From assembly GCA_020633205.1 (NCBI GenBank), contig JACKEB010000014.1, positions 331,392 to 395,391 on the forward strand: a stretch of DNA of 64,000 nucleotides, in the 5' to 3' direction. A program made the position numbers and the translations under genes. The notes under the pieces were generated by a model. The model was not told the DNA's origin, did no database searches, and saw nothing but the letters and a program-made list of their open reading frames with translations. Shown in pieces: positions 8,293 to 50,544 of the stretch. Numbering within the stretch: the first letter of the stretch is position 1; the number at the start of each line of letters is the position of its first letter. Source of the DNA: Polyangiaceae bacterium (GTDB lineage: Bacteria; Myxococcota_A; Polyangia; Polyangiales; Polyangiaceae).

Positions 8293-9339
8293 GTGTCGCG
8301 TTCGACCTGGCTCGTGATCGGCGTGTGGTGGACGGCCTTTGGGTTGCTCCACTTCTTTTCGTTGCTCGAGTTTCTGCCCTTCGAGGACGTCGCAGCACGA
8401 CGCAGTCTGGCTTGGACGCTCTCCGGCTTCTTCTCGAGTCTCCCGCTGGCTTGGCTGGTGCCACGTGTGAAGCGCCCACGTGGCTTCGCTGGGCTCGTGG
8501 TGCTCGCGACCCTGCTCTCCCTGTTGTGGGGGATCGGTGGGTCAATCCTCGAGGAAATGGCGGACCCGTTCTTGTCTTCCTACACGAGTTACCTCTTCTT
8601 GGCGCCGAGCCAGGAGGCGCGCCTCGACTCACCCCTGGCGTTTCCGGGGATTTTACTGGGGCTCTTGGTCGTGCTGCTCCTGCTCGAGCAGCGCACTCGC
8701 CTACGCGGCCAACAACAAAGTTTGGTGGAGGTGGAGCGTACGGCACAGCGAGCTCAGCTCGAGGCGCTCCGTTATCAGCTCAACCCGCACTTCCTGTTCA
8801 ACGCGCTCAACAGCATCGGCGCGCTAGCCACGGAGGATCCAGAGAAGACGCGCCAGGTGGTGACTCAGCTCGCCGACTTCCTTCGCTACTCCCTCTTGCC
8901 CAGCAATGAGGAAGCGAGCCGGGTCACGCTCCAGCAGGAGATCGAAGCCATCGTCGCCTACCTCGGGATTGAACAAGTGCGTTTCGAGAGCGATCTGGTC
9001 GTGACCTACGCCATCTCGGAGGCTGCCGGTGTGCAGGAAGTGCCCGCGTTTTTGCTCTTGCCGTTGGTCGATAACGCGATCAAGTACGGGCAGCGCACGA
9101 GCCCCACGCCGCTGAGGATCAAGCTGAGCGCCAGCTTCGAGGACGGCGCCTTGTGGGTCGAGGTCGCGAACACCGGGCGCTGGCTCGAAGACGCGAGCGT
9201 GCCCGGCACCCGCAAAGGCCTAGCCAACGTGGAACAGCGTCTCGCCGCCGAGTATCCTGGGCGCTACTCCCTCACCACCGATGCCGATGGAGAGTGGGTG
9301 CGCGTGAGCTTGAGCCTCAGACCTGAGCTTCCGAAGTGA
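8293..9339 (+). CDS. LytS/YehU-type sensor histidine kinase (membrane N-terminus + His_kinase + HATPase)
   Basis: LNPHFLFNALNSI motif of LytS-family kinases. Several N-terminal TM segments. The C-terminal ATPase has NAIKYG. Start is uncertain: GTG at 8293 avoids overlap with the divergent gene, while the ATG at 8086 in the track would overlap it. Confidence 0.85.
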   Translation: MSRSTWLVIGVWWTAFGLLHFFSLLEFLPFEDVAARRSLAWTLSGFFSSLPLAWLVPRVKRPRGFAGLVVLATLLSLLWGIGGSILEEMADPFLSSYTSYLFLAPSQEARLDSPLAFPGILLGLLVVLLLLEQRTRLRGQQQSLVEVERTAQRAQLEALRYQLNPHFLFNALNSIGALATEDPEKTRQVVTQLADFLRYSLLPSNEEASRVTLQQEIEAIVAYLGIEQVRFESDLVVTYAISEAAGVQEVPAFLLLPLVDNAIKYGQRTSPTPLRIKLSASFEDGALWVEVANTGRWLEDASVPGTRKGLANVEQRLAAEYPGRYSLTTDADGEWVRVSLSLRPELPK

Positions 9340-9345
9340 CCCTGC

Positions 9346-10122
9346 ATGAAGGCCTTGATTGTCGATGATGAGCGGCTGAGCCGTCGTGCGCTGCGAGGCC
9401 TGCTCGGTCACCTCGGCGTCTCCGAGTGCGAGGAGGCGAGCAGCCTGAAGGACGCCATCGACGCGCTCACGCAAGAGCGCTTCGACCTGGTGTTTCTCGA
9501 CATTCAGCTCCGCGGGGAAACTGGCTTCGAGCTATTCGAGCGCGCCGGGCAGCTCGAGCTGCCCCCGGTCATCTTCGTGACGGCGTATGACTCCTACGCC
9601 GTGCGCGCCTTCGAAGTGAACGCCCTCGACTACTTGATGAAGCCGGTCGCGCTGGAACGTTTGCAGTCGGCGCTCGACCGCGCAAAGCAGCGCACCTCAC
9701 CCCCAAAATCTCGGGTAGAAACGCCGTCCACGGGCGTGGGGGGAGCGGCTCTGACTGCGCCGGCAACGGAGCTTTCGAAGCTCTCACCAGAGGACCTGAT
9801 TTTCTGTGAAGAAGGTGGAAAGGCGCGCTTCGTTCGGGTGAGCGAGGTGGTGTTGATTCAAGCCGCGGGGAACTACACCGAGATCGGACTGCAGGGTGGA
9901 GTGAGCGTGTTGGTGCTCAAGCCGCTGCTGGTGTGGGAGCAGCAACTGCCGGAGCGTCAGTTCGTGCGCGTCCATCGCTCGACGATCGTGAACGTGAGCT
10001 TCATTCGCGAGATCACCCGGGAGAGCTCGTCGAGTCACAGCGTCACGCTGCAAGGCTGGCCACGCGCCGTGCAGCTCAGCCGTCGGCGGGCGACGGAGCT
10101 TCGGAGTCGACTCGGGGTGTGA
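9346..10122 (+). CDS. LytR/AlgR-family response regulator (receiver + LytTR DNA-binding domain)
   Basis: Receiver motifs (LIVDDE, DLVFLDIQL, K). C-terminal LytTR-like FVRVHRSTIVN. Lies 7 bp downstream of the kinase. Confidence 0.92.
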   Translation: MKALIVDDERLSRRALRGLLGHLGVSECEEASSLKDAIDALTQERFDLVFLDIQLRGETGFELFERAGQLELPPVIFVTAYDSYAVRAFEVNALDYLMKPVALERLQSALDRAKQRTSPPKSRVETPSTGVGGAALTAPATELSKLSPEDLIFCEEGGKARFVRVSEVVLIQAAGNYTEIGLQGGVSVLVLKPLLVWEQQLPERQFVRVHRSTIVNVSFIREITRESSSSHSVTLQGWPRAVQLSRRRATELRSRLGV

Positions 10123-10215
10123 CCACTCATCCGGGTACGGAGCCGCTCATCCAACGAGGGCTCCGCTTGGCCTGAAGCGGTGGAACGCCACAAAAGATCC
10201 TGCAAACTCGGACCC

Positions 10216-11478
10216 ATGTTGCGCATCGCGAAAGTTGGCAGTCTCTGTTTGCTGGTGTCACTCCTCGGAGTCGGTTGCTCCGATGATGACAGCGCGTCTG
10301 GCGCGGGCGGGAGCGCCGGTTCGTCCACGGCAGGTTCCGCAGGGATTGGGGGTGAGGGGGGCAGCGCCGGAAGTAGCGCGGGCACCGGTGGAGCCAGTGG
10401 AGCTGCGGGCAGCGGCGGAACCGAAACGGGAGGCACCGCCGGGCAAGCCACAGCCGATCTCCAGAGCCTCATCGAAACAGCGCAGACCGAGATCGGTCTA
10501 CCGGCGCTCGCTGGCGTGGTGCTCCGCTCAGGCGGCATCGTCGATCAAGGGGTGAGCGGTGTGAGGCGCCTCAGTCAGCCGGATCTGGCGACGCTGGATG
10601 ACCACTGGCACATCGGCTCCAACGTCAAGGCCATGACCGCCACGCTGTGCGCGATGCTGGTGGAAGACGGCAAGCTAGAGTTCGACGCCAAGCTCAGCGA
10701 CTTATTCCCCGAGGTAACGGGTATCGACCTAGGGCTGGCGGACGTCACCCTCGAGATGTTGCTCCAGCACCGCGCTGGCATCGCAGCCTACACCAGCCGT
10801 TTGTCCATCAACGTCATCCCCACGGATGTCGCCGACGATCGCCAGAAGTTCGCGGAGTGGCTGATCCAGCAGCCACCGGCGACCCCCATCGGTGAGTTCA
10901 ACTACTCGAACGCCGGCTATGGCCTCGTGGGTGCGATCCTCGAACGCGCCAGCGGTATGACCTACGAAGAGCTCCTCGACTCGCGCCTCGTGCAACCTCT
11001 GGGGATGCAGTCCAAGGCGTGGCTCAGCTGGCCCGCGAGCACCGAAGCAGAGCAGCCCTGGGCCCATTGGTCGATCACCGGACCCTTGCAAGAGCACCCG
11101 CCCACTGACGTCTCGATGCCCCTCGGGCTGAGCACTGCAGGCAACTTCAGCTTCTCGCTGCTCGACTACGCACGCTTCGTCCAGCTCCACCTGCGGGCGC
11201 GTCGTGAAGATCCAGAGCTCCTGAGCCAAGGCAGCTTCGACAAGCTGCACACGCCGAACGGCGACTACGCCATGGGCTGGGTCGTTGCGAGCTACAACGG
11301 CAAGCCACTTCTGGCTCACGAGGGCAGCCTGGATGGCTTCGATGCGCACACCGTGATCTGGCCGACTGAAGATCTAGCGCTCGTGCTGGTCAACAACGCG
11401 GGCGCGAACTTCGCGAGCGAACCGGTAGCGATGCGTTGGCTGGCGTGGTCCGAGCTGCCGTGGCCAGCCGCGAAGTGA
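10216..11478 (+). CDS. Serine hydrolase, class C beta-lactamase / PBP-related family, lipoprotein with Gly/Ser-rich linker
   Basis: Lipobox LLGVGC, then a GS-rich linker. SxxK (SNVK) and YxN (YSN) active-site motifs are present. Alternative start at 10180. Confidence 0.85.
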   Translation: MLRIAKVGSLCLLVSLLGVGCSDDDSASGAGGSAGSSTAGSAGIGGEGGSAGSSAGTGGASGAAGSGGTETGGTAGQATADLQSLIETAQTEIGLPALAGVVLRSGGIVDQGVSGVRRLSQPDLATLDDHWHIGSNVKAMTATLCAMLVEDGKLEFDAKLSDLFPEVTGIDLGLADVTLEMLLQHRAGIAAYTSRLSINVIPTDVADDRQKFAEWLIQQPPATPIGEFNYSNAGYGLVGAILERASGMTYEELLDSRLVQPLGMQSKAWLSWPASTEAEQPWAHWSITGPLQEHPPTDVSMPLGLSTAGNFSFSLLDYARFVQLHLRARREDPELLSQGSFDKLHTPNGDYAMGWVVASYNGKPLLAHEGSLDGFDAHTVIWPTEDLALVLVNNAGANFASEPVAMRWLAWSELPWPAAK

Positions 11479-11500
11479 CGCGACGTGCGGCTAGCTGCGG

Positions 11501-12421
11501 TTACTGTGGCGGCTGCAAGCACCGCACGCACTCGAGGAGCGCGCGCATCTTGGGCGCAGTAGAAATTCTCTGGGGAAAATAAAGAAACAACCCGCTCTCG
11601 ACGATGCTGTACTCCGGCAGCACACGCATCAACGAGCCGCAGGCGAGCTGGCGCTCGACCAAGGGCGCAAACAAGTAGGCGAGGCCCTGGCCTGCCTCGG
11701 CGAGCTCGGCTGCATACAAGGCGTCATTGACCACCAGTGAGCCGCGCACTTCGACACGCCGATCGTCGCCTGCTTCCTGAAACTCCCAACGGTAAAGGCC
11801 GCCCCCGCTGACTTCCCGGTAGCCAATGCACTGGTGCTGCGCGAGGTCAGACAGCGTCTTCGGAGGTGGATGCGTACGGAAATACGTCGGGCTCCCCACG
11901 ACGATGGCTTCCAGAGGCGGTGTCAGCCGAACCGCGACCATGTCTTGCTGAACCATCTCACCGAGGCGCACCCCAGCGTCGAAACCCTGGGCGACGATGT
12001 CTGACAAGCCATCGTCGATGAAGATCTCCAGCTGAACCTTGGAGTGCTTTCGCCCGAGCTCAAGCGCGAGCGGAGTGACGGTCAACGGGAGCGCCACGCG
12101 GGGAACATTCAGGCGCAGCAGCCCGGTGGCTTCTCCCGAAGCGGCGAGCCGCAACAGCTCGAGCTCTTCACCCAGGCCAGTCAACGCCGGCTCGGCCGCC
12201 GCGACAAAACCATGGCCCGCTTCCGTGAGGGAAACGCTGCGGGTCGTGCGCGCAAACAGAGCGACGCCGAGGCCGCTCTCCACCTGGCGCACGGCGTGAG
12301 AGACGGCGGAAGGCGTCATCCCAAGCTCCCGCGCGGCCGCGGTGAAGCTCCGCTTTTGCGCGACGCTGAGCACCACCGGTAGGTGCCTCAAGAGGTCCCG
12401 CGTGGCGCTCAGCTCCTGCAT
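11501..12421 (-). CDS. LysR-family transcriptional regulator
   Basis: N-terminal HTH (SFTAAARELGMTPSAVSHAVRQVE) followed by a LysR substrate-binding domain. Divergent from the aldo/keto reductase gene. Confidence 0.93.
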   Translation of the reverse strand: MQELSATRDLLRHLPVVLSVAQKRSFTAAARELGMTPSAVSHAVRQVESGLGVALFARTTRSVSLTEAGHGFVAAAEPALTGLGEELELLRLAASGEATGLLRLNVPRVALPLTVTPLALELGRKHSKVQLEIFIDDGLSDIVAQGFDAGVRLGEMVQQDMVAVRLTPPLEAIVVGSPTYFRTHPPPKTLSDLAQHQCIGYREVSGGGLYRWEFQEAGDDRRVEVRGSLVVNDALYAAELAEAGQGLAYLFAPLVERQLACGSLMRVLPEYSIVESGLFLYFPQRISTAPKMRALLECVRCLQPPQ

Positions 12422-15560: not shown

Positions 15561-18419
<2,859 letters not shown>

Positions 18420-18628
18420 GCTGCACGAAACGTTTGCGCGATTTACAGAACGGGGAAGCGAGGCCATTTGGGCGGGATTGCGTTGCGCGAAATGGAGCGC
18501 CTCACCCCCAACCAATGAAACGTCGTGAAACGACTGGGACAGCTGGTTTCAGGTGTTTGCAACGCGCTCGCCGCCTCTTCAGAGGCTGCAAGTCCCGTGA
18601 TCTCCGGCATTTCCGTGGGGTCAGTCAC

Positions 18629-20260: not shown

Positions 20261-20335
20261 GAAGCGGGTTTGCCGCAACACCCTCGGTCTGGCGGGAGCC
20301 TGGCGGGCGGGGCGCTAGCAGGATACGATCCGGCG

Positions 20336-21463
20336 GTGATCGAGCGGATTCACTACAAAGGCTTCAAGAGCTTGCGCGACGTGGTCTTCGAGCCTGGGCG
20401 CTTCGCCGTGATCGTGGGTCGCAACGGAAGCGGTAAGTCCACGATGCTCGAGGGCATCCGCAAGATGTGCATGCTGGCGCAGCCCTTACCCGGTGAGGGA
20501 AGGAGAGTGGGCGGGAGGCCTGCGCTCGTTTTCGACGAGTCGCAGTTCGATGCGGAGAGCTTTGCACGCCAGGGGCACTTTCAGCTCACTCTCACGTATC
20601 CACGCCACGTACTCAGCGTGCACGCTAACTCTAAGGGGGTCGAAGACAAGCGCCTCTTTCTCACGTTTGACAGCAACCAAGTACCGGCAACCTCCTCCGA
20701 GTGCAAAACGCGCCTTGATGCTGCTCAGGGTCATATACCCACTGCGCGCTACTTCCGCTTCGCCCAGGATCGACTAACGGCCGTGGCGTTACCTCGAAGC
20801 GACACGCCTGAGGTAGAGGAAGATGGCTACGGTGTTGCCACTGTTCTTTCAGATCTAGCGGGCAACGCGAGGCAACAGTTCGATTTGGTGCTGGAGGACG
20901 TCAAAGCCATTGTTCCGGGGGTGGAAGACTTGCGCCTACCCAACGCGTGGACCTCTGTGACCGAGAGTGAGCTTGTCAGGATTGGCGACGATCTGCTCCC
21001 CCGTCAAACAAAGCGAGACGTTGTTGGTAAGTCATTTGAACTGCGTTTGGGGAAGCAGGGGTGGATCCCTGCGGAAATGTTGAGTGAGGGCACGGTATTG
21101 GCCCTCACATTGTCAACTCTTATCCGCTCGGCAACACGCCCTCGGGTCCTCTTGATAGACGACTTGGAGCGCGGGCTACACCCCCTCGCCCAGCAAGCTA
21201 CGGTACGGCGAATTCAAGATGCCCTAGCAGCAGCGAGCGATCTCCAAGTGATTTGCACCACGCACTCGCCGTTTGTGGTCGACGCCGCGCCGCCGGAGAG
21301 CGTCTTCGTGACCAAGGTAGAGCGAGCGACGGGTGCGGCGAGCGCTAGGCGCCTGATCGAGCATCCCGAGTACGAAAAGTGGAAAGACGCGATGCTCCCG
21401 GGTGAGTTCTGGTCCAGCGTAGGCGAGGACTGGATCTTTGAGGATGAGGCCGCTGCCCAGTGA
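20336..21463 (+). CDS. ABC-type (AAA_21/SMC-like) ATPase
   Basis: Walker A GRNGSGKST, LSEGT signature-like motif, Walker B VLLIDDLERGLHP, TTHSP. GTG at 20336 gives VIERIHYKGFKSL..., the usual N-terminus for this family. The track's 20270 start is a TTG. GC is locally depressed. Confidence 0.88.
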   Translation: MIERIHYKGFKSLRDVVFEPGRFAVIVGRNGSGKSTMLEGIRKMCMLAQPLPGEGRRVGGRPALVFDESQFDAESFARQGHFQLTLTYPRHVLSVHANSKGVEDKRLFLTFDSNQVPATSSECKTRLDAAQGHIPTARYFRFAQDRLTAVALPRSDTPEVEEDGYGVATVLSDLAGNARQQFDLVLEDVKAIVPGVEDLRLPNAWTSVTESELVRIGDDLLPRQTKRDVVGKSFELRLGKQGWIPAEMLSEGTVLALTLSTLIRSATRPRVLLIDDLERGLHPLAQQATVRRIQDALAAASDLQVICTTHSPFVVDAAPPESVFVTKVERATGAASARRLIEHPEYEKWKDAMLPGEFWSSVGEDWIFEDEAAAQ

Positions 21464-22206
21464 CGCACACGAAGCTCTTCTGCCTAGCCGGCGAAGACGC
21501 AGCGCACCACAAGCTCACGACCCGAATCACCGATCGACTTCTAGTCGAGGGCATCGATTGGCTTGAGGAAGGGGCGGTCCTTGACGGGACTCGAACGTGG
21601 GCGGGGCTCCAGTCGGTCGAATATTTCCAGCTGAGCAAGGCTTGCGCTCGCGCTCGCGAGGAGAAGCTAAACTTCTACGGAGGCTTCCAGAATGATCCCA
21701 AGGCACTCGAAGCTCGGCAATACCGCGCGGCAATCTTGCTATTCATGAAGGTCTGCAAGCCCCCTCCCACCCTGCTGATCATCGCCCGAGATCTGGATGG
21801 AGAGCCCAACCGCCGTCATGGTTTCGAGAGTGCTGTCGAGCATACTAAGCCACCGTTTCCTGTTGTTCTCGCAGCGCCGCAACCCGAAGCGGAGGCGTGG
21901 TACGTTGCCGGCTACGTTCCTCGTGATGATACCGAGCGGAAACGCTTGGATGAGGTGACCCGAAAGCTCGGATTCGATCCTACAGAACGCCCTCACCAGC
22001 TCAAGTCGACGACTCACGCGTCAGTCCGTGACGCGAAGTCTGTCCTGGAAATGCTCGAACCGAATCGCGATCGCTGGATCGAGTGCCTGGACGAGCCATG
22101 GAGCGTACTCGAACGGCACGGAGACGGGAGTGTTGGCATGTGCGAGTTTGTGTCGCACTTGAGGGCGGCACTGACTGTGGTGTTCCCTGAGATGAGGAAG
22201 GGCTAG
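21460..22206 (+). CDS. Toprim-like protein (DUF4276 / OLD-nuclease-domain-like), partner of the ATPase
   Basis: GTG start overlaps the upstream TGA (GTGA). Ordered acidic motifs: LFCLAGEDAAH, LLIIARDLDGEP, PEAEAWYVAGY. The family assignment is inference from motif order only. Confidence 0.6.
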   Translation: MTHTKLFCLAGEDAAHHKLTTRITDRLLVEGIDWLEEGAVLDGTRTWAGLQSVEYFQLSKACARAREEKLNFYGGFQNDPKALEARQYRAAILLFMKVCKPPPTLLIIARDLDGEPNRRHGFESAVEHTKPPFPVVLAAPQPEAEAWYVAGYVPRDDTERKRLDEVTRKLGFDPTERPHQLKSTTHASVRDAKSVLEMLEPNRDRWIECLDEPWSVLERHGDGSVGMCEFVSHLRAALTVVFPEMRKG

Positions 22207-22773
22207 ATGCCCGGCAAGTCGCTCACCACCTACATCGCGCTGTTTCGAGGCATCAACGTTGGGGGCAACAAGAAGCTCCCGATGGCGGAGCTGCGAGCGC
22301 TGTGCGAGGAGCTTGGACTAGGTTCCGTACGGACATACATTCAGAGCGGAAACCTCGCATTTCGCAGTGGGCTCGACCAGAGCGCGCTCGAGCAGACGAT
22401 TGAGAAAGCCGTGAAGGGGGAGTTCGGCTTCCATGCTGATGTGATCGCCCGCACCGCAAAGCAATGGAAGAGCTACGCCAAGGCGTCCGCGTTCCCTGAC
22501 GCTGAGGAGGCGCGGCCGAAGTTTCTGCACTTGGGCCTGTCGAAGCAGAAGCCCGCGAAGGGTTGCATCAGCAAGCTCGAGGAGTACGCGAAGCTCGATG
22601 AACGCTTGGCCCTCAAGGGCGACGCGTTGTGGGTCGACTTCGTTGGGGGAGCTGGACGCTCGAAGCTCACCCCCGCAGTCTTCGATCGCGCGGTGGGCTC
22701 AACCGTCACCCTGCGCAACTGGCGTTCCGTGCAGGCGATCAGCGCGCTCTTGGAAGAGGTCGAGAGCGACTAG
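22207..22773 (+). CDS. DUF1697-family protein
   Basis: YIALFRGINVGGNKKLPMAELR is the characteristic DUF1697 N-terminus. Its ATG immediately follows the TAG of the preceding gene. Confidence 0.85.
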   Translation: MPGKSLTTYIALFRGINVGGNKKLPMAELRALCEELGLGSVRTYIQSGNLAFRSGLDQSALEQTIEKAVKGEFGFHADVIARTAKQWKSYAKASAFPDAEEARPKFLHLGLSKQKPAKGCISKLEEYAKLDERLALKGDALWVDFVGGAGRSKLTPAVFDRAVGSTVTLRNWRSVQAISALLEEVESD

Positions 22774-41421: not shown

Positions 41422-41645
41422 GCTGAGCCTCGGTTGGGGAACGCCGGACCTCACCCCCAACCCCACTGGAATGAGCGTTACAGCGTCCAACGGGGGCGGA
41501 TCCGAGTGGGCCTGTCAAAGAAATGCACCCCCCCTACAAGGCCGAATTGTCGCTGAGTGCGGCAGGTTAGGCCTGAAGCTTGCTTATTGGCCCTCGGGCC
41601 GGTCTTGCGTTGGCGGACTTCCCGAATATGTTGAGCCCCCCCGCC

Positions 41646-44534
41646 ATGGCTACAGCTCGCTCCCTCGTCATCGTTGAGTCTCCCGCAAAGGCGCGAACTA
41701 TCGCGGGTTTTCTCGGCGATGGGTTCGTCGTTGAGTCCTCGATCGGTCACATCCGTGACCTGCCGAAGCGAGCGAGCGACATCCCGGCGCAATATAAGAA
41801 GTCAGCCTGGGCCCGCCTTGGAGTCGATGTCGAGAACGGCTTCCAGCCGCTGTACATCGTCGACCCCGACAAGAAGAGCCACATCCAGAAGCTCAAGGAT
41901 CTCTTGAAGGGTGCGGACGAACTCTTCCTCGCAACCGACGAAGATCGCGAGGGAGAGAGTATCGCGTGGCACTTGCTCGAGGTGCTGAAGCCGAAGGTGC
42001 CCGTGAAGCGCATGGTGTTTCACGAGATCACGCGGCGCGCGATCCAAGAAGCCATCGACCATCCGCGTGAGCTCGATCGGCGTCTGGTCGACGCGCAGGA
42101 AGCGCGACGCATCCTCGATCGCCTGTACGGCTACGAGGTGTCGCCCGTCCTGTGGAAGAAGGTGATGCCCAAGCTCTCCGCGGGTCGCGTGCAGAGCGTG
42201 GCGACACGCATCATCGTGGCTCGCGAACAGGAGCGCATGGCGTTCCGTTCGGCCCAGTACTGGGGCATCGACGGCACCTTCGGCACGAAGGACGGCAAAG
42301 ATCAGCCCGGTGGCGGCCAGTTCGAAGCCAGCCTGCTCGAACTCGACGGCAAGCGCGTCGTTCAAGGCAAAGACTTCGACGATCTCGGCAAGCTGAAGAA
42401 AGATGATCTCTTCCTGCTCAAGGAAGCGGAAGCCAAGGGCCTGGTCGAGTCGCTGAAAGACGCGCCGGCCAAGGTGCTCTCCGTCGAGCGGAAGCCAAAC
42501 CGTCGCAGCCCGGCAGCTCCGTTCATGACCAGCACGCTGCAGCAGGAAGCAGGACGCAAGCTGCGCTTCACTTCCGCGCGGACCATGCGTGCCGCGCAGC
42601 GCCTGTACGAGAACGGCTTCATCACCTACATGCGTACGGACAGCACCACGCTGTCGTCTGCAGCCATCAACTCGGCGCGCACGCAGATCGAGAAGATGTA
42701 CGGCAAGGACTACCTGCCGAGCTCGCCCCGCGTTTACAAGAACAAGGTCAAGAACGCCCAAGAGGCCCACGAAGCGATCCGCCCGGCGGGTGATGTCTTC
42801 AAGCTTCCGGAGCACGTCGCGCGCGAAGTCGACAGCGACGAAGCGAAGCTCTACGAGTTGATCTGGAAGCGGACGATCGCCTCGCAAATGGCTGATTCTC
42901 GCGGTGAGAGCATCTCCGTGCGGATCAGCGCGAAGGCGAAGGATGGTCGGGACGCGCTGTTCAACGTCAGCGGGAACACGATCATCTTCCCGGGCTTCTT
43001 GCGCGCCTACGTCGAAGGCAGTGACGACCCCGCCGCCGAGCTCGGCGACAAGGAGAAGCACCTGCCAGCGATGAAGGAAGGCGACGCGCTGAACAGCTTG
43101 TCCTTCGAGACTCAAGGCCACGAGACGCAGCCGCCGGCGCGCTTCACGGAAGCTTCCCTGGTGCGCAAGCTCGAGGAACTCGGCGTCGGTCGTCCCTCGA
43201 CGTACGCCTCGATCATCAGCACCATTCAGGCGCGCGGCTATGTCTGGAAGAAGGGCAGCGCCCTGGTTCCGTCGTTCACTGCGTTCGCCGTGATTGGCTT
43301 GCTCGAGCAACACTTCGGCGACCTGGTCGACTACGCCTTTACCGCGCGGATGGAAGATGAGCTCGACTCCATCGCCAGCGGCAACGAAGAGGTCGTGCCG
43401 TGGCTCAAGCGCTTCTACTTCGGCCAGAAGCCAGAGAACGACGGGCCCGACGACGGTGGCTCCGGCTTGGACCTCGGGCTGCGCTCCTTGGTTGCCGATC
43501 AGCTGGGTGAGATCGACGCCCGCGCCATCAACTCGCTGCCCATCGGCAAAGACGAAGAGGGTCGAGAAATCGTGGTGCGCGTCGGTCGCTACGGCGCCTA
43601 CCTGCAGCGCGACGAAGATCGCGCGAGCCTCCCCGAGGACATGGCGCCCGATGAGCTGACCTTGGAGAAGGCCAGCGAGATGCTCAACGCGCCGAGCGGC
43701 GATCGCGATCTGGGAACGGACCCCGAGAGCGGCCTGCAAGTGTTCGTGCGAGCCGGGCGCTTCGGCACGTACGTGCAGCTTGGGGAAGCGGGCGAGGGCA
43801 AAGAGAAGCCCAAGACTGGCAGCATCCTGAAGAGCATGGATCCGGCGACGATGACGCTGGAGGACGCGCTCAAGGTGCTGAGCCTGCCCCGCGAAGTCGG
43901 CGTGGGTCCGGAAGATAAGGTCATCACCGCGCAGCTCGGCAAGTTCGGCCCGTATTTGCGTATGGGAACGGATAGCCGCAGCCTGGAGACGGAGGAGCAA
44001 GTCTTCACCATCACCCAGGAAGAGGCGCTGAAGATCTTCGCTCAGCCGCGTCAGCGCGGTCGGCGTGCGGCCGCCCCGCCGCTGAAGGAGCTCGGCAACG
44101 ATCCGGTCAGCGGTGGCGCCATCACGCTGCGTGAGGGTCGCTTTGGTCCCTACGTGACCGACGGCGAGACCAACGCGAGCCTGCGTAAGGACGACGACCC
44201 GAACACCATCACGCCAGAGCGCGCCCACGAGCTGCTCGCCGATCGTCGTGCCAAGGGGCCTTCGAAGAAGAAGGCGAAGAAGAAGACCGCCAAGAAGGCG
44301 ACGAAGAAGACGGCCAAGAAGGCCACCGCCAAGACTGCTAGCGACGCGCCGGCCAAGAAGACCGCCAAGAAGAAGGCGACCAAGAAGGCCAGCAAGAAGA
44401 CGGCCAAGAAGGCCAGCAAGAAGACTGCTAGCAAGGCAGCGGGTAGCGACGGCGAGTCCAAGGCCAAGTCCAGCGCAAAGCCGGTGAAGAAGGCGCCGAG
44501 CAGCGATAGCGGCTCCGCCGATTTGGTTGGGTGA
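41646..44534 (+). CDS. topA: DNA topoisomerase I (type IA) with four GRFGPY-type C-terminal repeats and a Lys-rich tail
   Basis: Toprim LVIVESPAKA and DEDREGE. Active-site region includes GFITYMRTDS. C-terminal repeats are GRYGAYLQ, GRFGTYVQ, GKFGPYLR and GRFGPYVT, followed by KKKAKKKTAKKATKK... ATG at 41646. Confidence 0.97.
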   Translation: MATARSLVIVESPAKARTIAGFLGDGFVVESSIGHIRDLPKRASDIPAQYKKSAWARLGVDVENGFQPLYIVDPDKKSHIQKLKDLLKGADELFLATDEDREGESIAWHLLEVLKPKVPVKRMVFHEITRRAIQEAIDHPRELDRRLVDAQEARRILDRLYGYEVSPVLWKKVMPKLSAGRVQSVATRIIVAREQERMAFRSAQYWGIDGTFGTKDGKDQPGGGQFEASLLELDGKRVVQGKDFDDLGKLKKDDLFLLKEAEAKGLVESLKDAPAKVLSVERKPNRRSPAAPFMTSTLQQEAGRKLRFTSARTMRAAQRLYENGFITYMRTDSTTLSSAAINSARTQIEKMYGKDYLPSSPRVYKNKVKNAQEAHEAIRPAGDVFKLPEHVAREVDSDEAKLYELIWKRTIASQMADSRGESISVRISAKAKDGRDALFNVSGNTIIFPGFLRAYVEGSDDPAAELGDKEKHLPAMKEGDALNSLSFETQGHETQPPARFTEASLVRKLEELGVGRPSTYASIISTIQARGYVWKKGSALVPSFTAFAVIGLLEQHFGDLVDYAFTARMEDELDSIASGNEEVVPWLKRFYFGQKPENDGPDDGGSGLDLGLRSLVADQLGEIDARAINSLPIGKDEEGREIVVRVGRYGAYLQRDEDRASLPEDMAPDELTLEKASEMLNAPSGDRDLGTDPESGLQVFVRAGRFGTYVQLGEAGEGKEKPKTGSILKSMDPATMTLEDALKVLSLPREVGVGPEDKVITAQLGKFGPYLRMGTDSRSLETEEQVFTITQEEALKIFAQPRQRGRRAAAPPLKELGNDPVSGGAITLREGRFGPYVTDGETNASLRKDDDPNTITPERAHELLADRRAKGPSKKKAKKKTAKKATKKTAKKATAKTASDAPAKKTAKKKATKKASKKTAKKASKKTASKAAGSDGESKAKSSAKPVKKAPSSDSGSADLVG

Positions 44535-47789: not shown

Positions 47790-48686
47790 TCAAACGGAGC
47801 GCAGCGGGCTTGGCAATCGCAGCACACGCGCCCCGCGTGGCGGGGGATCGAACGGTGGCAGCGCCAGCACCAGCCGCTCGATGCCTGAGAGCAAATCGCG
47901 CAGTGCGCTCTCGGTGTGGAGCTCGGACCAGTTCGCATCGACTGCGAGGCCGATCCAGTAAATCCCGCTGATTCGGCGGCCGAGGAGCGCGCCACCGTGC
48001 TCCAGCGCGAGTTGAAAGCGCTCAGCGCGAGCAGGCTGCTTTCCAACAAGCTCTATCAGCGCTGCCGCGCTCAACGCGCGCTCTGCGTTGTCACCGTCGA
48101 TTTCCCCGCGGGTGCGCTCGACCCGAGTGGTCAGTTCACGCAGGCGCTGACGGCTCGAGATGTTGGCTTGCTTGAATGCATCGCCGAGTCTCGCTCCAAG
48201 CTCTTCGTCGTCCAGGGGCAGGAGTTCGACCAGCGACAGCGAGAGCTCCTCACAGGCGCGGGACGTCTCCAGTGCGTCGAGCAACAGATCGCGATCGTAG
48301 CCGCCGCCAAGGCCGCTCTGGGACCATATCATGGGCGACTGCTGATCGACGACGAGCGCGACCGCCGCGCCGCTGCGACTCCGCAGGCTATCCAGCACTT
48401 GCTCGAGACGACGGTCCGGTGGGGCATGGCGCTGCATCGTCTCCTCTGGCTCCACGCCTGACAGTGTCTCCGCGAACGTGTTGAGGAGCGCAACCAAGCG
48501 CTCCTGCAGCTCCAGGGGTTCAGCGGGAGGCTGATCGAAGACGACGACTACGCGCTCGGCGTTCCCCAGGTTTACCCAGATCAAATGCGGGTCGTCCGGA
48601 TCGAGCCCGCCAATCTCCAGGCGCGCGTCAGCGGCGCCCAGCTGGGCGCACACGACCTCCAACAAACGCAGCACGGCGCGCGACAT
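47790..48686 (-). CDS. Hypothetical cytoplasmic protein
   Basis: 298 aa with coding-like composition. No family recognised. Confidence 0.6.
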   Translation of the reverse strand: MSRAVLRLLEVVCAQLGAADARLEIGGLDPDDPHLIWVNLGNAERVVVVFDQPPAEPLELQERLVALLNTFAETLSGVEPEETMQRHAPPDRRLEQVLDSLRSRSGAAVALVVDQQSPMIWSQSGLGGGYDRDLLLDALETSRACEELSLSLVELLPLDDEELGARLGDAFKQANISSRQRLRELTTRVERTRGEIDGDNAERALSAAALIELVGKQPARAERFQLALEHGGALLGRRISGIYWIGLAVDANWSELHTESALRDLLSGIERLVLALPPFDPPPRGARVLRLPSPLRSV

Positions 48687-48729
48687 GAGCTGAGTCTAGC
48701 CCTTCGCGCGCCGCTTTCGAAACCCCGCG

Positions 48730-50544
48730 TCAGCTGCTGCGGCGGCGGCGCAGGATCACAGCGCCGAGGCCTAGCAAACCCGCCAGGGCTCCGTTTGGCA
48801 CGCCGTCGCTCGGGGAGCCGGGAACGCTGCAGCTGCAGCTGTCGTCGTCGGGGACCTTGAAACGGGGAGCTGGTTCGACGCCGCCGTCGCCGACGAAGCC
48901 GCCCGCACCGCCAAAGCTAGCTCCAGCGCTGCCGCCATTCCCTGCGGAACCACCTGTCGCCGCGCCTGCAGAGCCGCCGGTCGCTGCGCCTGCAGAGCCA
49001 CCCGCTCCGCCACTCGTGGCGCCTGCGGTGCCTCCGGTTCCGCCGGTTGTCGCGCCGCCAGAGCCTCCGGTGGTTCCGCCGGTTCCGCCGGTTGTCGCCG
49101 TGCCTCCGGTTCCGCCAGTTGTCGCGCCGCCAGAGCCTCCGGTGGTTCCTCCGGATCCGCCGGTTGTCGCCGTGCCTCCGGTTCCGCCAATCCCTGCGGA
49201 ACCACCGGTGTTGGTCCCGCCGGATCCGCCGGTCGCTGTAGTGCCTCCGGTTCCGCCTGTGCTGACGGTTCCTCCCGATCCGCCGGTCGCCGTAGTTCCG
49301 CCGGTGCTGACGGTCCCGCCGGTTCCACCGGTTGCCGTGGTTCCTCCGGTTCCACCGGTGCTGACGGTTCCGCCCGTCCCGCCGCTGGTGCTCGTTCCGC
49401 CGTTGCCTCCGGTGGTTCCCCCGGTTCCGCCAGTTGTCGCCGTGCCTCCGGTTCCGCCCGTGCTGACGGTTCCTCCGGATCCGCCGGTCGCGCTTGTCCC
49501 GCCCGTCGCGCCGGTCCCAATGGTTCCGCCGGTTCCGGTGGTGGCTCCGGTACCGCCGGTGCTGATCACGCCGCCGCTCCCACCCGTGGTGCTGGTCCCG
49601 CCGTTTCCGGTGCTGCTGCCACCCGTTCCGATCACGCCGCCGCTTCCGCCGGTTCCTGTGCTGCTGCCGCCAACGCCGATCACACCTCCGGTCGCGCCGG
49701 TGCCCACGGTGCCGCCGGTGCTCGTCGCCGCCCCGGTTCCGCCGGTCGCTCCGGTTCCACCGGTCGCTCCGGTTCCGCCCGTCGCTCCGGTTCCGCCGGT
49801 TCCGCCGCTGCCGCTGGTTCCGCCACTACCGCCTGCGCCAGCCGCGCCCGCGTCTGAGACGGGGCAAGGGTTGGCTTGGCGGAGTGTGACCGTACTGGTG
49901 TCGACCAGGGTGAATGCGTCGTTGCAGGCGATGTTGGTTTGATCCGTCGTGGCCCCGGTGTCCTCGAGCAAGGAAACGCTGAGCGTCGTCTGGGGGTCGC
50001 ACGCTCTGCTGCCCTCCCACCACACGTCGAGGAGAGCAGCGCCATTCGTGTCGAGGAACTTCAGACCATCCGGAGCTCCATTCTGCAGCAGGTCGTCGTT
50101 GTTCCCGCTATTCGCCCGGAATGCATCGCACATCGACTTGTCCGTTGCGATGCCATTCGTGGCGCAGATCACGAAGTAGTCGTCGTTGGGGATCGTAGTG
50201 GTCGATACATCGACGTCCCAGACCGTTCCGCAGTTGCTGCCGTTGACATGACGTACAATACCCAGGCCGCACTCCCCGAAAGTCGTCGCCGTTGATCCGG
50301 AATCGCGGATGACGTGGAGTTCGACGAAGTTGGCGGTATCTGCACCTGTGTCGTCGTAGTTGACCTTCGTCAATTCCACACGGCAAGTACTGCCGCTGCC
50401 CACGCCGATCACCTCCTGCGTGGCGCTACCAACCGACTCGCCGGGCGGGGTGGGGTCGCTACTACACGCGGTGAAACCAAGAATGGTGACTGGGAGCACA
50501 CTCGCGAGCGCAGTCGCTCGAGCACGGATCTTGAGCATAGCCAT
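48730..50544 (-). CDS. Secreted lipoprotein: lamin-tail-like domain + ~330-aa Gly/Thr/Ser repeat region + MYXO-CTERM-type sorting tail
   Basis: Lipobox LGFTAC. VELTKVNYDDTGADTANFVELH is LTD-like. The C-terminus CSCSVPG...LAGLLGLGAVILRRRRSS matches the MYXO-CTERM pattern. Confidence 0.85.
   Translation of the reverse strand: MAMLKIRARATALASVLPVTILGFTACSSDPTPPGESVGSATQEVIGVGSGSTCRVELTKVNYDDTGADTANFVELHVIRDSGSTATTFGECGLGIVRHVNGSNCGTVWDVDVSTTTIPNDDYFVICATNGIATDKSMCDAFRANSGNNDDLLQNGAPDGLKFLDTNGAALLDVWWEGSRACDPQTTLSVSLLEDTGATTDQTNIACNDAFTLVDTSTVTLRQANPCPVSDAGAAGAGGSGGTSGSGGTGGTGATGGTGATGGTGATGGTGAATSTGGTVGTGATGGVIGVGGSSTGTGGSGGVIGTGGSSTGNGGTSTTGGSGGVISTGGTGATTGTGGTIGTGATGGTSATGGSGGTVSTGGTGGTATTGGTGGTTGGNGGTSTSGGTGGTVSTGGTGGTTATGGTGGTVSTGGTTATGGSGGTVSTGGTGGTTATGGSGGTNTGGSAGIGGTGGTATTGGSGGTTGGSGGATTGGTGGTATTGGTGGTTGGSGGATTGGTGGTAGATSGGAGGSAGAATGGSAGAATGGSAGNGGSAGASFGGAGGFVGDGGVEPAPRFKVPDDDSCSCSVPGSPSDGVPNGALAGLLGLGAVILRRRRSS
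48880..49850. repeat. Highly repetitive GGT/GGN-rich coding DNA (Gly-Thr-Ser repeats), including an exact-looking 72-nt tandem unit
   Basis: The unit beginning gttgtcgcgccgccagagcctccggtgg... occurs at 49046 and again at 49118 (a 24-aa repeat). Degenerate ccggttccgcc periodicity runs throughout. Confidence 0.85.

Follow-up and report, generated by a model that had tools for sequence, protein, structure and literature searches.

Genes A and B, two adjacent genes of a Polyangiaceae bacterium (GCA_020633205.1, contig JACKEB010000014.1), probably form a defence cassette and a divergent member of the ATPase plus Toprim-like kind represented by HEC-01 and Mad3/Mad4. That the pair is a self-contained and horizontally mobile two-gene cassette of this kind, operating by the mechanism proposed below, is the reading we favor and consider fairly probable. 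The analyzed stretch of 64,000 nt (positions 331,392-395,391 of the forward strand of the contig) is referred to as the window, and all features are given in window coordinates on the plus strand. Gene A (20336..21463) encodes a 375-aa ABC-type (AAA_21) ATPase, a putative sensor or motor subunit, while gene B (21460..22206) encodes a 248-aa DUF4276-like (Toprim-superfamily-like) protein and putative metal-dependent nuclease effector.

The longest open reading frame of gene A extends from 20270 to 21463 and begins with TTG; the GTG at 20336, which has AGGA ahead of it, yields the 375-aa product. The GTG start of gene B overlaps the TGA stop of gene A in a GTGA tetranucleotide (21460..21463, sequence ccaGTGAcg), an arrangement that suggests translational coupling. 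At its 3' end, the TAG of gene B is immediately followed by the start codon (ATG) of a DUF1697 gene (ggcTAGATGccc; Pfam PF08002, E = 3.5e-40). The neighbors of A-B in the window are ordinary housekeeping genes and do not form a defence island, as is the case in most of the loci carrying the pair. Stress/detoxification-type genes (DinB-family, MBL and YdeI) are also found among the window neighbors. BREX genes are absent from the entire 64-kb window, no other mad genes are located near A-B, and neither flanking repeats, tRNAs, promoters nor terminators were detected above chance as insertion or regulatory marks around the pair. Two 984-aa open reading frames considered as a possible duplication proved to be unrelated, and this was rejected.

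The composition of A-B is foreign-looking, the pair being the lowest-GC stretch of the window. Across the window, sliding windows of equal length average 0.641 +/- 0.0155 in GC content; A-B has 0.594 (z = -3.0), and only 0.3% of sliding windows are as GC-poor, every one of them overlapping A-B. GC3 is 0.686 in gene A, 0.671 in gene B and 0.776 +/- 0.032 in 47 other genes, the spread of the latter being narrowed by filtering the set at GC3 >= 0.70. The anomaly stops sharply at the border between B and the DUF1697 gene, whose GC3 of 0.804 is native-like. The windowed GC deviation anticipated in the original prediction was thus observed, and the anomalous composition supports the horizontal acquisition of the pair which it had proposed. 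A search for an empty site, that is, a DinB-DUF1697 adjacency without A-B, returned none; because relatives of the DUF1697 protein share no more than 54% identity with it and lack synteny, no empty-site orthologue is available.

Pairing of the two genes is conserved elsewhere, as had also been anticipated. An A homologue is located directly upstream of a B homologue in 29 of 30 loci (phmmer, 1e-31 to 1e-61), a 4-nt RTGA overlap is present at 22 of 28 homologous A/B junctions, and the two proteins co-diverge (Mantel r = 0.92). As pairing, overlap and motifs recur across about 30 independent loci, these features are beyond what chance would produce. The DUF1697 gene, whose participation the original prediction had raised as a question, does not belong to the system: it is found near A-B in none of the 30 A-B loci, neither A nor B is found near DUF1697 in any of 80 DUF1697 loci, and it was rejected as a third component. 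Five loci carry the pair embedded in Pgl/BREX operons, for example in the order PglW-PglX-[A-B]-PglY-PglZ; four of these have A-B between PglX and PglY while the fifth adjoins BrxC. Roughly three of every four non-redundant loci, the window among them, have no BREX or RM genes nearby, and there A-B stands alone. The distribution of the pair is patchy and it has no conserved neighbors. Guilt by embedding in Pgl/BREX operons makes A-B a candidate anti-phage system.

Based on its profile match, gene A is an ABC ATPase of the AAA_21 type. It matches Pfam AAA_21 (PF13304) with E = 3.2e-23 and 83.7 bits against a cut-off of 27, and the alignment spans aa 23-316 of A and profile positions 1-304 of 304. 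The Walker A motif or P-loop GRNGSGKST (aa 28-36, 20417..20443), containing Lys34, follows the pattern G-x-N-[GA]-x-G-K-[ST] throughout a comparison of 24 A sequences that contains the window copy, and the ABC signature-like motif LSEGT (aa 249-253, 21080..21094) appears as [LVI]S[ED]GT in all 24. The Walker B motif and D-loop VLLIDDLERGLHP (aa 271-283, 21146..21184) show a hhhDDhDxxLH pattern conserved across loci, and the H-loop TTHSP (aa 308-312, 21257..21271) is found as T[TS]HSP in 22 of the 24 sequences. These motifs had been correctly located in the original prediction, while the spacing from Walker A to Walker B, given there as about 230 aa, was measured as 243 aa.

Among PADLOC models, the best match of A is HEC-01A (PDLC04175, E = 2.4e-27), the best-scoring stretch being partial (aa 244-360), and several other HEC-01A models are matched at 1e-17 to 1e-24, so that A carries the HEC-01A match expected of the A component of HEC-01. 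The PADLOC mad3 model is matched over its full length (E = 9.6e-25; aa 1-360 to 1-370 of 374). Together with these two, PDC-M07A and AriA (1.1e-22, matched partially) rank among the best defence-model matches of A. Also matched were PDC-M25A and PDC-M31A, whose counterparts PDC-M25B and PDC-M31B are matched by members of the B family; Old followed at 4e-15 and GajA-type models were weaker. The nearest plasmid relatives of A are ATPases directly followed by genes annotated by PGAP as 'DUF4276 family protein', and the loci that enclose these plasmid pairs are of the MTase/helicase, BREX-1 and MTase/Mrr types. Their DUF4276 partners match HEC-01B at 1e-71 to 1e-100.

The B protein itself has no match in Pfam, NCBIfam or PADLOC (0 at E <= 1). 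It is not rare: clustering at 50% identity leaves at least 1,248 representatives of its family, most of them from Myxococcota and Planctomycetota. Across 232 B-family members, six residues reach 98-100% conservation, namely E12, D111, D113, E145, W147 and K193. Glu12 (21493..21495; 98%) lies at the C-terminal end of beta-1 (model strand 5-11), the position of the Toprim catalytic Glu, and Asp111-x-Asp113 (21790..21798; each Asp 99%) just past beta-3 (model strand 105-109), where it aligns with D-L-x of DUF4276 group 2. Past beta-4, E143-x-E145-A-W147 (21886..21900) has E145 and W147 conserved in 100% and E143 in only 64% of members; it aligns to 'ELEAWLLAD' of DUF4276 and can be compared with the DUF4276 motifs hEfEAll and vEAWfLAD. 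Lys193 (22036..22038), located in the C-terminal helical region within DAKxVL, is 100% conserved and comparable to nPKxvL in DUF4276 group 2. The GTG overlap, the coordinates of B and the three acidic-motif segments described earlier, LFCLAGEDAAH (aa 6-16), LLIIARDLDGEP (aa 105-116) and PEAEAWYVAGY (aa 142-152), are all present.

Comparison of profiles suggests that the B family is effectively an unmodelled sister family of DUF4276/HEC-01B. Out of 62 B-family members, 8 weakly match DUF4276 and 15 weakly match HEC-01B through model PDLC04196. The HEC-01B models PDLC04196, 04205, 04200 and 04206 are matched at 1e-4 to 1e-5, the best being PDLC04196 with E = 5.5e-5, and an annotated Anabaena DUF4276 protein matches the shared models 04196, 04205 and 04206 about as strongly as the B family does. 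Against Pfam DUF4276 (PF14103), the best family member reaches 17.4 bits (E = 0.0057), under the gathering threshold of 30.2, and the window B shows no match. Using hhalign, the B family aligned to DUF4276 group 2 with P = 1.6e-4 (Prob ~50%) over 98 columns of a template of only 4 sequences, while reversed controls gave P = 0.37-0.57. DUF4276 groups 1 and 2 align to each other with P = 1.7e-4, that is, equally well. Alignment of the B profile to group 1 (P = 0.097) and to single DUF4276 sequences (E = 0.5, 0.003 and 0.031) was weak. The earlier description of B as DUF4276-like is therefore supported by consistent remote similarity at the level that DUF4276 subgroups show to each other. In the literature, DUF4276 and HEC-01B are assigned to the Toprim superfamily and credited with a metal site like that of OLD (PMC12065111; bioRxiv 10.1101/2024.01.29.577857). 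A word-index search with the 62-member B profile returned clean B-family members and no Pfam-annotated bridge, tblastn of B against sequenced phages and plasmids returned no relatives, and tblastn of a DUF4276 protein against plasmids returned a single one; viral contigs scanned for DUF4276 relatives returned none.

An AlphaFold2 model of B is confident (pLDDT 91.2) and shows the order beta1-alpha-beta2-alpha-beta3-alpha-beta4 with E12 past beta-1 and D111xD113 past beta-3, a chain order compatible with Toprim. Foldseek searches with the full-length model against PDB and BFVD yielded nothing significant (best E = 0.04 and 0.03), the only Toprim-type match being M. tuberculosis topoisomerase I at rank 38 (E = 0.36). 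For a model of the N-terminal 156 aa, no OLD, GajA, AriB, RNase M5, primase or topoisomerase was found among the 50 matches listed, and neither B model matched 8UX9, 6P74, 6NK8 or 8SM3. Alignment of the B profile with the Toprim domain of the TopA protein encoded in the window was not significant (hhalign, P = 0.08), and a search of PDB sequences with the B profile gave only noise. As genuine DUF4276 profiles likewise find nothing there, the PDB sequence search has no power and its negatives carry little weight. Because Foldseek retrieved no Toprim structure with support, the Toprim fold of B is one that we infer only, and its nuclease activity is likewise putative.

These searches bear on the idea that B has a Rossmann-like fold other than Toprim and a mechanism unlike that of OLD or PARIS; it could, for example, be another type of hydrolase, or bind nucleotides or the ends of nucleic acids as a MID-like domain would. 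The best Foldseek match of the domain model is a Rossmann-like short-pAgo MID domain (9om4_B, E = 0.027, prob 0.96, TMq 0.50), short-pAgo MID domains are the sole matches with raised probability, and one of the 62 B-family members weakly matches Pfam MID_pPIWI_RE (E = 0.099), which together with the missing Toprim structure match and the TopA result is what speaks for such a fold. However, all Foldseek E-values for B are above 0.02, the negative searches weigh little for the reason given above, and the profile links to DUF4276/HEC-01B are consistent. Further, an invariant Glu past beta-1 combined with a DxD past beta-3 is a hallmark of Toprim and does not correspond to MID-domain residues, and we consider a non-Toprim fold of B very unlikely. 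Also very unlikely is a reading in which the B family is a distinct Rossmannoid effector rather than a mere DUF4276 clade. Its invariant E/DxD/E/K site would then act on something other than bulk DNA, such as a modified base, a nucleotide signal or one specific tRNA. Together with the ATPase, it would guard Pgl/BREX type 2 in particular by sensing anti-BREX factors of phages, and the many stand-alone copies would be an autonomous, unrecognized abortive-infection system. If this were true, stand-alone copies in Myxococcota and Planctomycetota would be missed by all current defence finders.

For the preferred reading, a two-gene cassette of the HEC-01 / Mad3-Mad4 kind, we propose the following mechanism. 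A, probably as a dimer or higher oligomer, would hold and control B, a small DUF4276-like metal-dependent nuclease of the Toprim superfamily with E12, D111/D113, E145 and K193 as its catalytic residues. The conserved stop/start overlap would ensure that both proteins are made in a fixed ratio. If the analogy to PARIS, OLD and Gabija holds, A would respond to a sign of infection, perhaps an anti-restriction protein of the phage, by releasing or activating B. Cleavage of tRNA or DNA by B would then halt phage replication, with the cell paying a price. Physical complex, trigger and defence phenotype are all proposed elements of this scheme. Pairs embedded in Pgl/BREX operons could represent a second line guarding the methylation-based system while the window copy would function on its own.

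The embedding can also be read differently, with A-B lacking any autonomous defence function and serving methylation-based immunity (BREX/Pgl, MADS, Hma or RM) as an accessory or regulatory part, one that might license or restrain the host system, for example. The window copy would then be an inert or re-purposed orphan. Its position between PglX and PglY in four loci and beside BrxC in a fifth fits this idea, as does the location of canonical HEC-01 pairs in Hma-like, BREX-1 and RM loci. Expressed alone, the single HEC-01 representative assayed failed to protect against any of the phages used (bioRxiv 10.1101/2024.01.29.577857), so the HEC-01 kind is unvalidated as autonomous defence. Mad3 and Mad4 are accessory components of MADS, yet deletion of either mad3 or mad4 weakens MADS defence (bioRxiv 10.1101/2023.03.30.534895). 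Against a purely accessory role stand the roughly three quarters of non-redundant loci without BREX or RM genes nearby, where neither reading frame is disrupted and the motifs of the ATPase as well as the acidic ones are kept, which indicates selection on the pair by itself; the window, free of BREX genes, is one of them. We regard an accessory role as unlikely. Two readings without an anti-phage role, a selfish cassette of the addiction or toxin-antitoxin type and a RecF/RecR-like pair (SMC-like ATPase plus Toprim protein) serving housekeeping repair, are together highly improbable. In favor of one or the other, the Pfam entry for AAA_21 reads 'putative AbiEii toxin, Type IV TA system', RecF cooperates with the Toprim protein RecR, and TIGR00611 (RecF) is matched by the N-terminal part of A at 1.3e-8; the window neighbors of stress/detoxification type would suit either proposal. 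The RecF match is, however, confined to the P-loop region (aa 2-46) at 34 bits against a cut-off of 172, and patchy distribution, foreign GC, lack of conserved neighbors and BREX embedding are atypical of housekeeping repair, which led us to reject the repair pair. As for an addiction cassette, nothing points to an antitoxin-like small partner and both proteins possess enzyme-like invariant motifs.

With B left blank by Pfam, NCBIfam and PADLOC, the pair would go uncalled; PADLOC would not report the window system because B lacks a HEC-01B match even at E <= 1. Recognition of the sister group would extend ABC ATPase plus Toprim-like modules into Myxococcota and Planctomycetota, Pgl/BREX type 2 would join the list of systems in which pairs of this sort are embedded, and many natural embedded and stand-alone variants would become available for testing the role of this class. 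The gain lies in fuller coverage of a known class and not in a new concept.

Of the known systems, HEC-01 (Hma-embedded candidate 01; Payne et al., bioRxiv 10.1101/2024.01.29.577857) likewise has two genes, the first for an AAA_21 ATPase and the second for a small DUF4276/TOPRIM-like protein. Their stop and start codons often overlap, and the module is embedded in larger methylation-based defence operons. The adjacent, co-oriented and often embedded layout of HEC-01 is found in the A-B loci, the window copy itself not being embedded. The B family differs from HEC-01B in the lack of a HEC-01B match for the window B, in length (~245 aa compared with ~190-225), in the motif past beta-1 ('aGED' instead of 'vEGxxE') and in its concentration in Myxococcota and Planctomycetota; HEC-01 is hosted by Hma, BREX-1 and RM systems while B-family pairs are found in Pgl/BREX type 2. 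Mad3/Mad4 of the Pseudomonas aeruginosa MADS system similarly combine an AAA_21 ATPase, to whose PADLOC model A aligns full-length, with a DUF4276 homologue, as Mad4 has been described (PMC12065111), within a methylation-based system. However, A scores 94.3 bits against NCBIfam MAD3 (NF047739), far under the cut-off of 420, and is thus not a MAD3 equivalog, and no mad4 model is matched by the B family. With DUF4276 (PF14103), the B family shares a collinear Glu past beta-1, D-x-[DHY] past beta-3, E-x-E-A-[WL] past beta-4 and a C-terminal [PS]-K, although it remains below the Pfam gathering threshold. PARIS (AriA/AriB), OLD and Gabija GajA couple an ABC ATPase to a Toprim-family nuclease effector, as A-B may do, and AAA15/21 plus DUF4276 pairs have been listed in the same ATPase tree as PARIS (PMC11464382). 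Unlike in PARIS and OLD, B is neither DUF4435 (AriB) nor Toprim_OLD by any profile, no DUF4435/AriB match being found in B or the 62 family members, and A and B are smaller than AriA (~53-55 kDa) and AriB (35 kDa). Of the membership in the OLD/Gabija/PARIS supergroup originally assigned to the pair, the combination of an ABC ATPase with a DUF4276-like, putatively Toprim-type protein is supported, while the nearest relatives are HEC-01 and Mad3/Mad4 rather than PARIS, OLD or Gabija. Its designation as an uncharacterized defence candidate is likewise supported, by the BREX embedding, as far as the candidate itself is concerned; the kind, given these nearest relatives, is already catalogued as a candidate.

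The three open reading frames that had been described in one orientation were all recovered from this Polyangiaceae (Myxococcota) MAG: the ABC-type ATPase gene A (20336-21463, plus strand), gene B (21460-22206, plus strand) and an abutting DUF1697 gene (22207-22773, plus strand). A begins at a GTG with AGGA just ahead, a longer ORF being possible from a TTG at 20270, and the GTG start of B overlaps the TGA stop of A (ccaGTGAcg), while the B/DUF1697 junction reads ggcTAGATGccc. Every motif quoted in the original prediction was found in the two proteins, with 243 aa separating Walker A from Walker B. The sequence of protein B is found unchanged in NCBI as 'hypothetical protein H6718_21605', encoded on a 671-kb contig.

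The low GC content ascribed to the pair holds under a sliding-window analysis, with A-B at 0.594 compared with 0.641 +/- 0.0155 for windows of the same length (z = -3.0), making it the lowest-GC stretch of its length within the 64 kb. GC3 agrees (A 0.686, B 0.671 vs 0.776 +/- 0.032 for 47 other genes), the spread of the latter being narrowed because comparison genes were pre-filtered at GC3 >= 0.70, a filter that does not enter the sliding-window test. With a GC3 of 0.804 the DUF1697 gene looks native, and the anomaly thus stops exactly at the stop codon of B. Neither border is marked by any of the tRNA, flanking repeat, promoter or terminator signals sought.

This copy of A-B is of a stand-alone type, no BREX genes being found across the 64-kb window, and is surrounded by genes for an Hsp70-like DUF3731 protein, a metallo-beta-lactamase, a DinB-family protein, DUF1697, MpaB/Lcp and YdeI. 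The large Hsp70-like protein (15561-18515, minus strand) carries a C-terminal DUF3731 'DnaK-related' domain (Pfam 1.7e-71). An equally long 984-aa ORF (41580-44534, plus strand) is not its kin (BLASTP E = 2.8); its N-terminal sequence resembles topoisomerase I (VIVESPAKA ... LATDEDREGE) and would put a genuine Toprim domain into the same window. GC peaks locally at 48001-50000 (0.698, the highest in the window), where a 604-aa ORF (48730-50544, minus strand) combines a GC of 0.685 with a GC3 as low as 0.714, suggesting a composition-biased, Ala/Gly/Pro-rich protein.

The pairing of A with B is conserved elsewhere. An A homologue ends at the start of B in 29/30 loci (phmmer 1e-31 to 1e-61), the one exception being cut by a contig end 137 nt upstream, and the identical 4-nt RTGA overlap is present at 22/28 junctions. 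When pairwise identities are compared across 24 loci, divergence between A proteins tracks that between their B partners (Mantel r = 0.92; 0/2000 permutations as high), indicating that the two are inherited as a unit. One family protein (P0232, 444 aa, 359-kb contig) joins a complete B in frame to half of an A-type ATPase, the C-terminal one that lacks Walker A; the fusion may be natural, or it may reflect a pseudogene or a gene-calling error. Participation of DUF1697, which the original prediction had raised, was not borne out: it lies downstream of B in 0/30 A-B loci and, reciprocally, neither A nor B occurs at any of 80 DUF1697 loci (423 kb). The DUF1697 gene is native to this genomic neighbourhood and does not belong to the module.

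In other genomes, A-B is embedded in Pgl/BREX type 2 systems, a setting new for this family. Two Polyangiaceae MAG contigs, JBILLK010000045.1 (locus L030:3-15036) and JAFGBI010000276.1 (L027), carry a complete operon on one strand, PglW-PglX-[A-B]-PglY(BrxC)-PglZ, with A-B exactly between PglX and PglY. Pgl genes were assigned by PADLOC in L030 (all E <= 1e-142) and via tblastn to L030 in L027 (64-75% identity). As all junctions overlap, the BREX genes and A-B seem to share one transcript. Two further loci (L029:4441-6511 and L028:1181-3393) contain a Septu-like PtuA ATPase (PADLOC 9.4e-58) and a small downstream ORF between PglX and A-B, followed by PglY-PglZ, so that two different ABC-ATPase modules are stacked in one BREX-2 locus; in L029, an unannotated 953-aa gene (8779-11640, opposite strand) separates A-B from PglY. 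Another locus (L024, 488-8717) encodes BrxC (PADLOC E = 0), a PDC-M07A-type ATPase (2e-69) with a 196-aa partner lacking any PADLOC match, and then A-B; its contig GC of 71% makes the label 'uncultured Enterobacteriaceae' probably wrong. About 16 other non-redundant loci have unrelated housekeeping flanks, each family seen once or twice, with Menshen NsnABC nearby in one. In an 'Alphaproteobacteria' MAG (73% GC, bin named MYXO), a 574-aa ORF without PADLOC match (L019:5135-6859) overlaps the A start by 4 nt, suggesting a third co-transcribed gene at that locus.

Protein A (375 aa) is a full-length AAA_21 ABC ATPase (Pfam PF13304, 83.7 bits). Its PADLOC matches are led by HEC-01A (2.4e-27), mad3 (9.6e-25, full length), PDC-M07A (6e-23) and AriA (1.1e-22), followed more weakly by AbiLi, PDC-M31A, PDC-M25A, PtuA and Old. 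A score of 94 bits against the NCBIfam MAD3 equivalog (cut-off 420) excludes orthology with Mad3. The nearest plasmid-borne relatives of A are ATPases whose next gene is directly a PGAP 'DUF4276 family protein'.

Protein B (248 aa) has no match at E <= 1 in Pfam (noise aside), PADLOC or NCBIfam, and no tblastn match among sequenced phages or plasmids. A word-indexed search recovered only ~14 clusters of its family, compared with at least 1,248 at E <= 1e-3 (478 at E <= 1e-30) in an exhaustive HMM search that counted one representative per 50%-identity cluster. All 150 of the matches listed are compact (207-308 aa, mostly ~240-260 aa). The family is concentrated in Myxococcota and Planctomycetota, a distribution not previously described; members with a named source belong to Sorangium, Archangium, Polyangiaceae, Nannocystaceae and Kofleriaceae in the former phylum and to Tuwongella in the latter, besides a few MAGs labelled Proteobacteria. 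Among 232 members, E12 (98%), D111 and D113 (99% each), E145, W147 and K193 (100% each) as well as R110 (95%) and R118 (94%) are conserved, with E143 kept in only 64%.

When 62 diverse members were scanned one by one, DUF4276 (PF14103) was the only Pfam family matched repeatedly (8/62, best E = 0.0057), others being matched once each. In PADLOC, HEC-01B models PDLC04196 (15/62) and 04205 (7/62, best 2.4e-5), PDC-M25B (12/62) and PDC-M31B recurred, all exact partners of the ATPase models matched by A. Two DUF4276-annotated partners of the plasmid relatives of A and an unannotated partner from an E. coli BREX-1 locus all match HEC-01B (1e-71 and 5e-100 for two, 1e-8 for Anabaena). The annotated Anabaena protein reaches only 2e-5 to 5e-4 against PDLC04196, 04205 and 04206, similar in strength to B-family members (5.5e-5, 2.4e-5 and 8.8e-4). 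Profile-profile comparison with a DUF4276 subgroup, a template of only four sequences, gave P = 1.6e-4 (Prob 50%) over 98 collinear columns spanning beta3-DxD, beta4-ExEAW and the Lys motif, compared with P = 0.37-0.57 for reversed controls. One genuine DUF4276 subgroup against another yields P = 1.7e-4 (Prob 49%), which would place B within the divergence range of the superfamily, yet under every curated threshold. On two Streptomyces plasmids (L013:1796-3765 and L045), adjoining AMP-binding and ACP genes, an AAA ATPase is paired with an unannotated partner (217 aa; N-terminally truncated to 144 aa in L045). The 217-aa protein is the closest sequence to the B profile outside the family (16.8 bits) and may bridge it to DUF4276.

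The AF2 model of B is confident (pLDDT 91.2, pTM 0.89), with strands 5-11, 45-48, 105-109 and 135-138 alternating with helices and a C-terminal helical region. E12 lies at the C-terminal end of beta-1, D111/D113 at that of beta-3 and E143/E145 at that of beta-4, placed in the model as a Toprim site would have them; the same arrangement is given for DUF4276 (PMC12065111). Motif placement is compatible with the Toprim-like character originally proposed for B, but structural searches gave no significant match to support it. Foldseek searches of PDB and BFVD with the full and N-terminal domain models returned nothing significant, the best match (E = 0.027) being the MID domain of short pAgo proteins, which is Rossmann-like. 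OLD, GajA, AriB, RNase M5, primase and topoisomerase were absent among the 50 matches listed for the domain model, and among those listed for the full-length model the only such entry was M. tuberculosis topoisomerase I (rank 38, E = 0.36). Genuine DUF4276 profiles likewise find nothing in the PDB by sequence, so these negative searches are weak evidence; even so, a Toprim fold stays a putative assignment for B.

The original observation is therefore confirmed, and its interpretation as an acquired ATPase and DUF4276-like pair with a candidate defence function is essentially right, given the pairing, GC content and DUF4276/HEC-01B similarity. PARIS, OLD and Gabija are mechanistic analogues (PMC11464382), although B matches none of their effector families (DUF4435, Toprim_OLD). 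We consider it reasonably probable that A-B is a horizontally acquired, stand-alone system of the HEC-01 or Mad3-Mad4 type, combining an ATPase with a putative DUF4276-like nuclease in a defence role. Mad4 has been described as a DUF4276 homologue (PMC12065111), and deletion of mad3 or mad4 weakens MADS (bioRxiv 10.1101/2023.03.30.534895). HEC-01, the commonest gene family embedded in Hma systems, is already catalogued as an ABC ATPase with a TOPRIM-like HEC-01B reported to have the BpOLD metal site in common; the representative tested conferred zero protection (bioRxiv 10.1101/2024.01.29.577857). Judged by sequence, B would add to these a large sister family that every current model misses, widening the coverage of a known candidate class rather than introducing a new principle.
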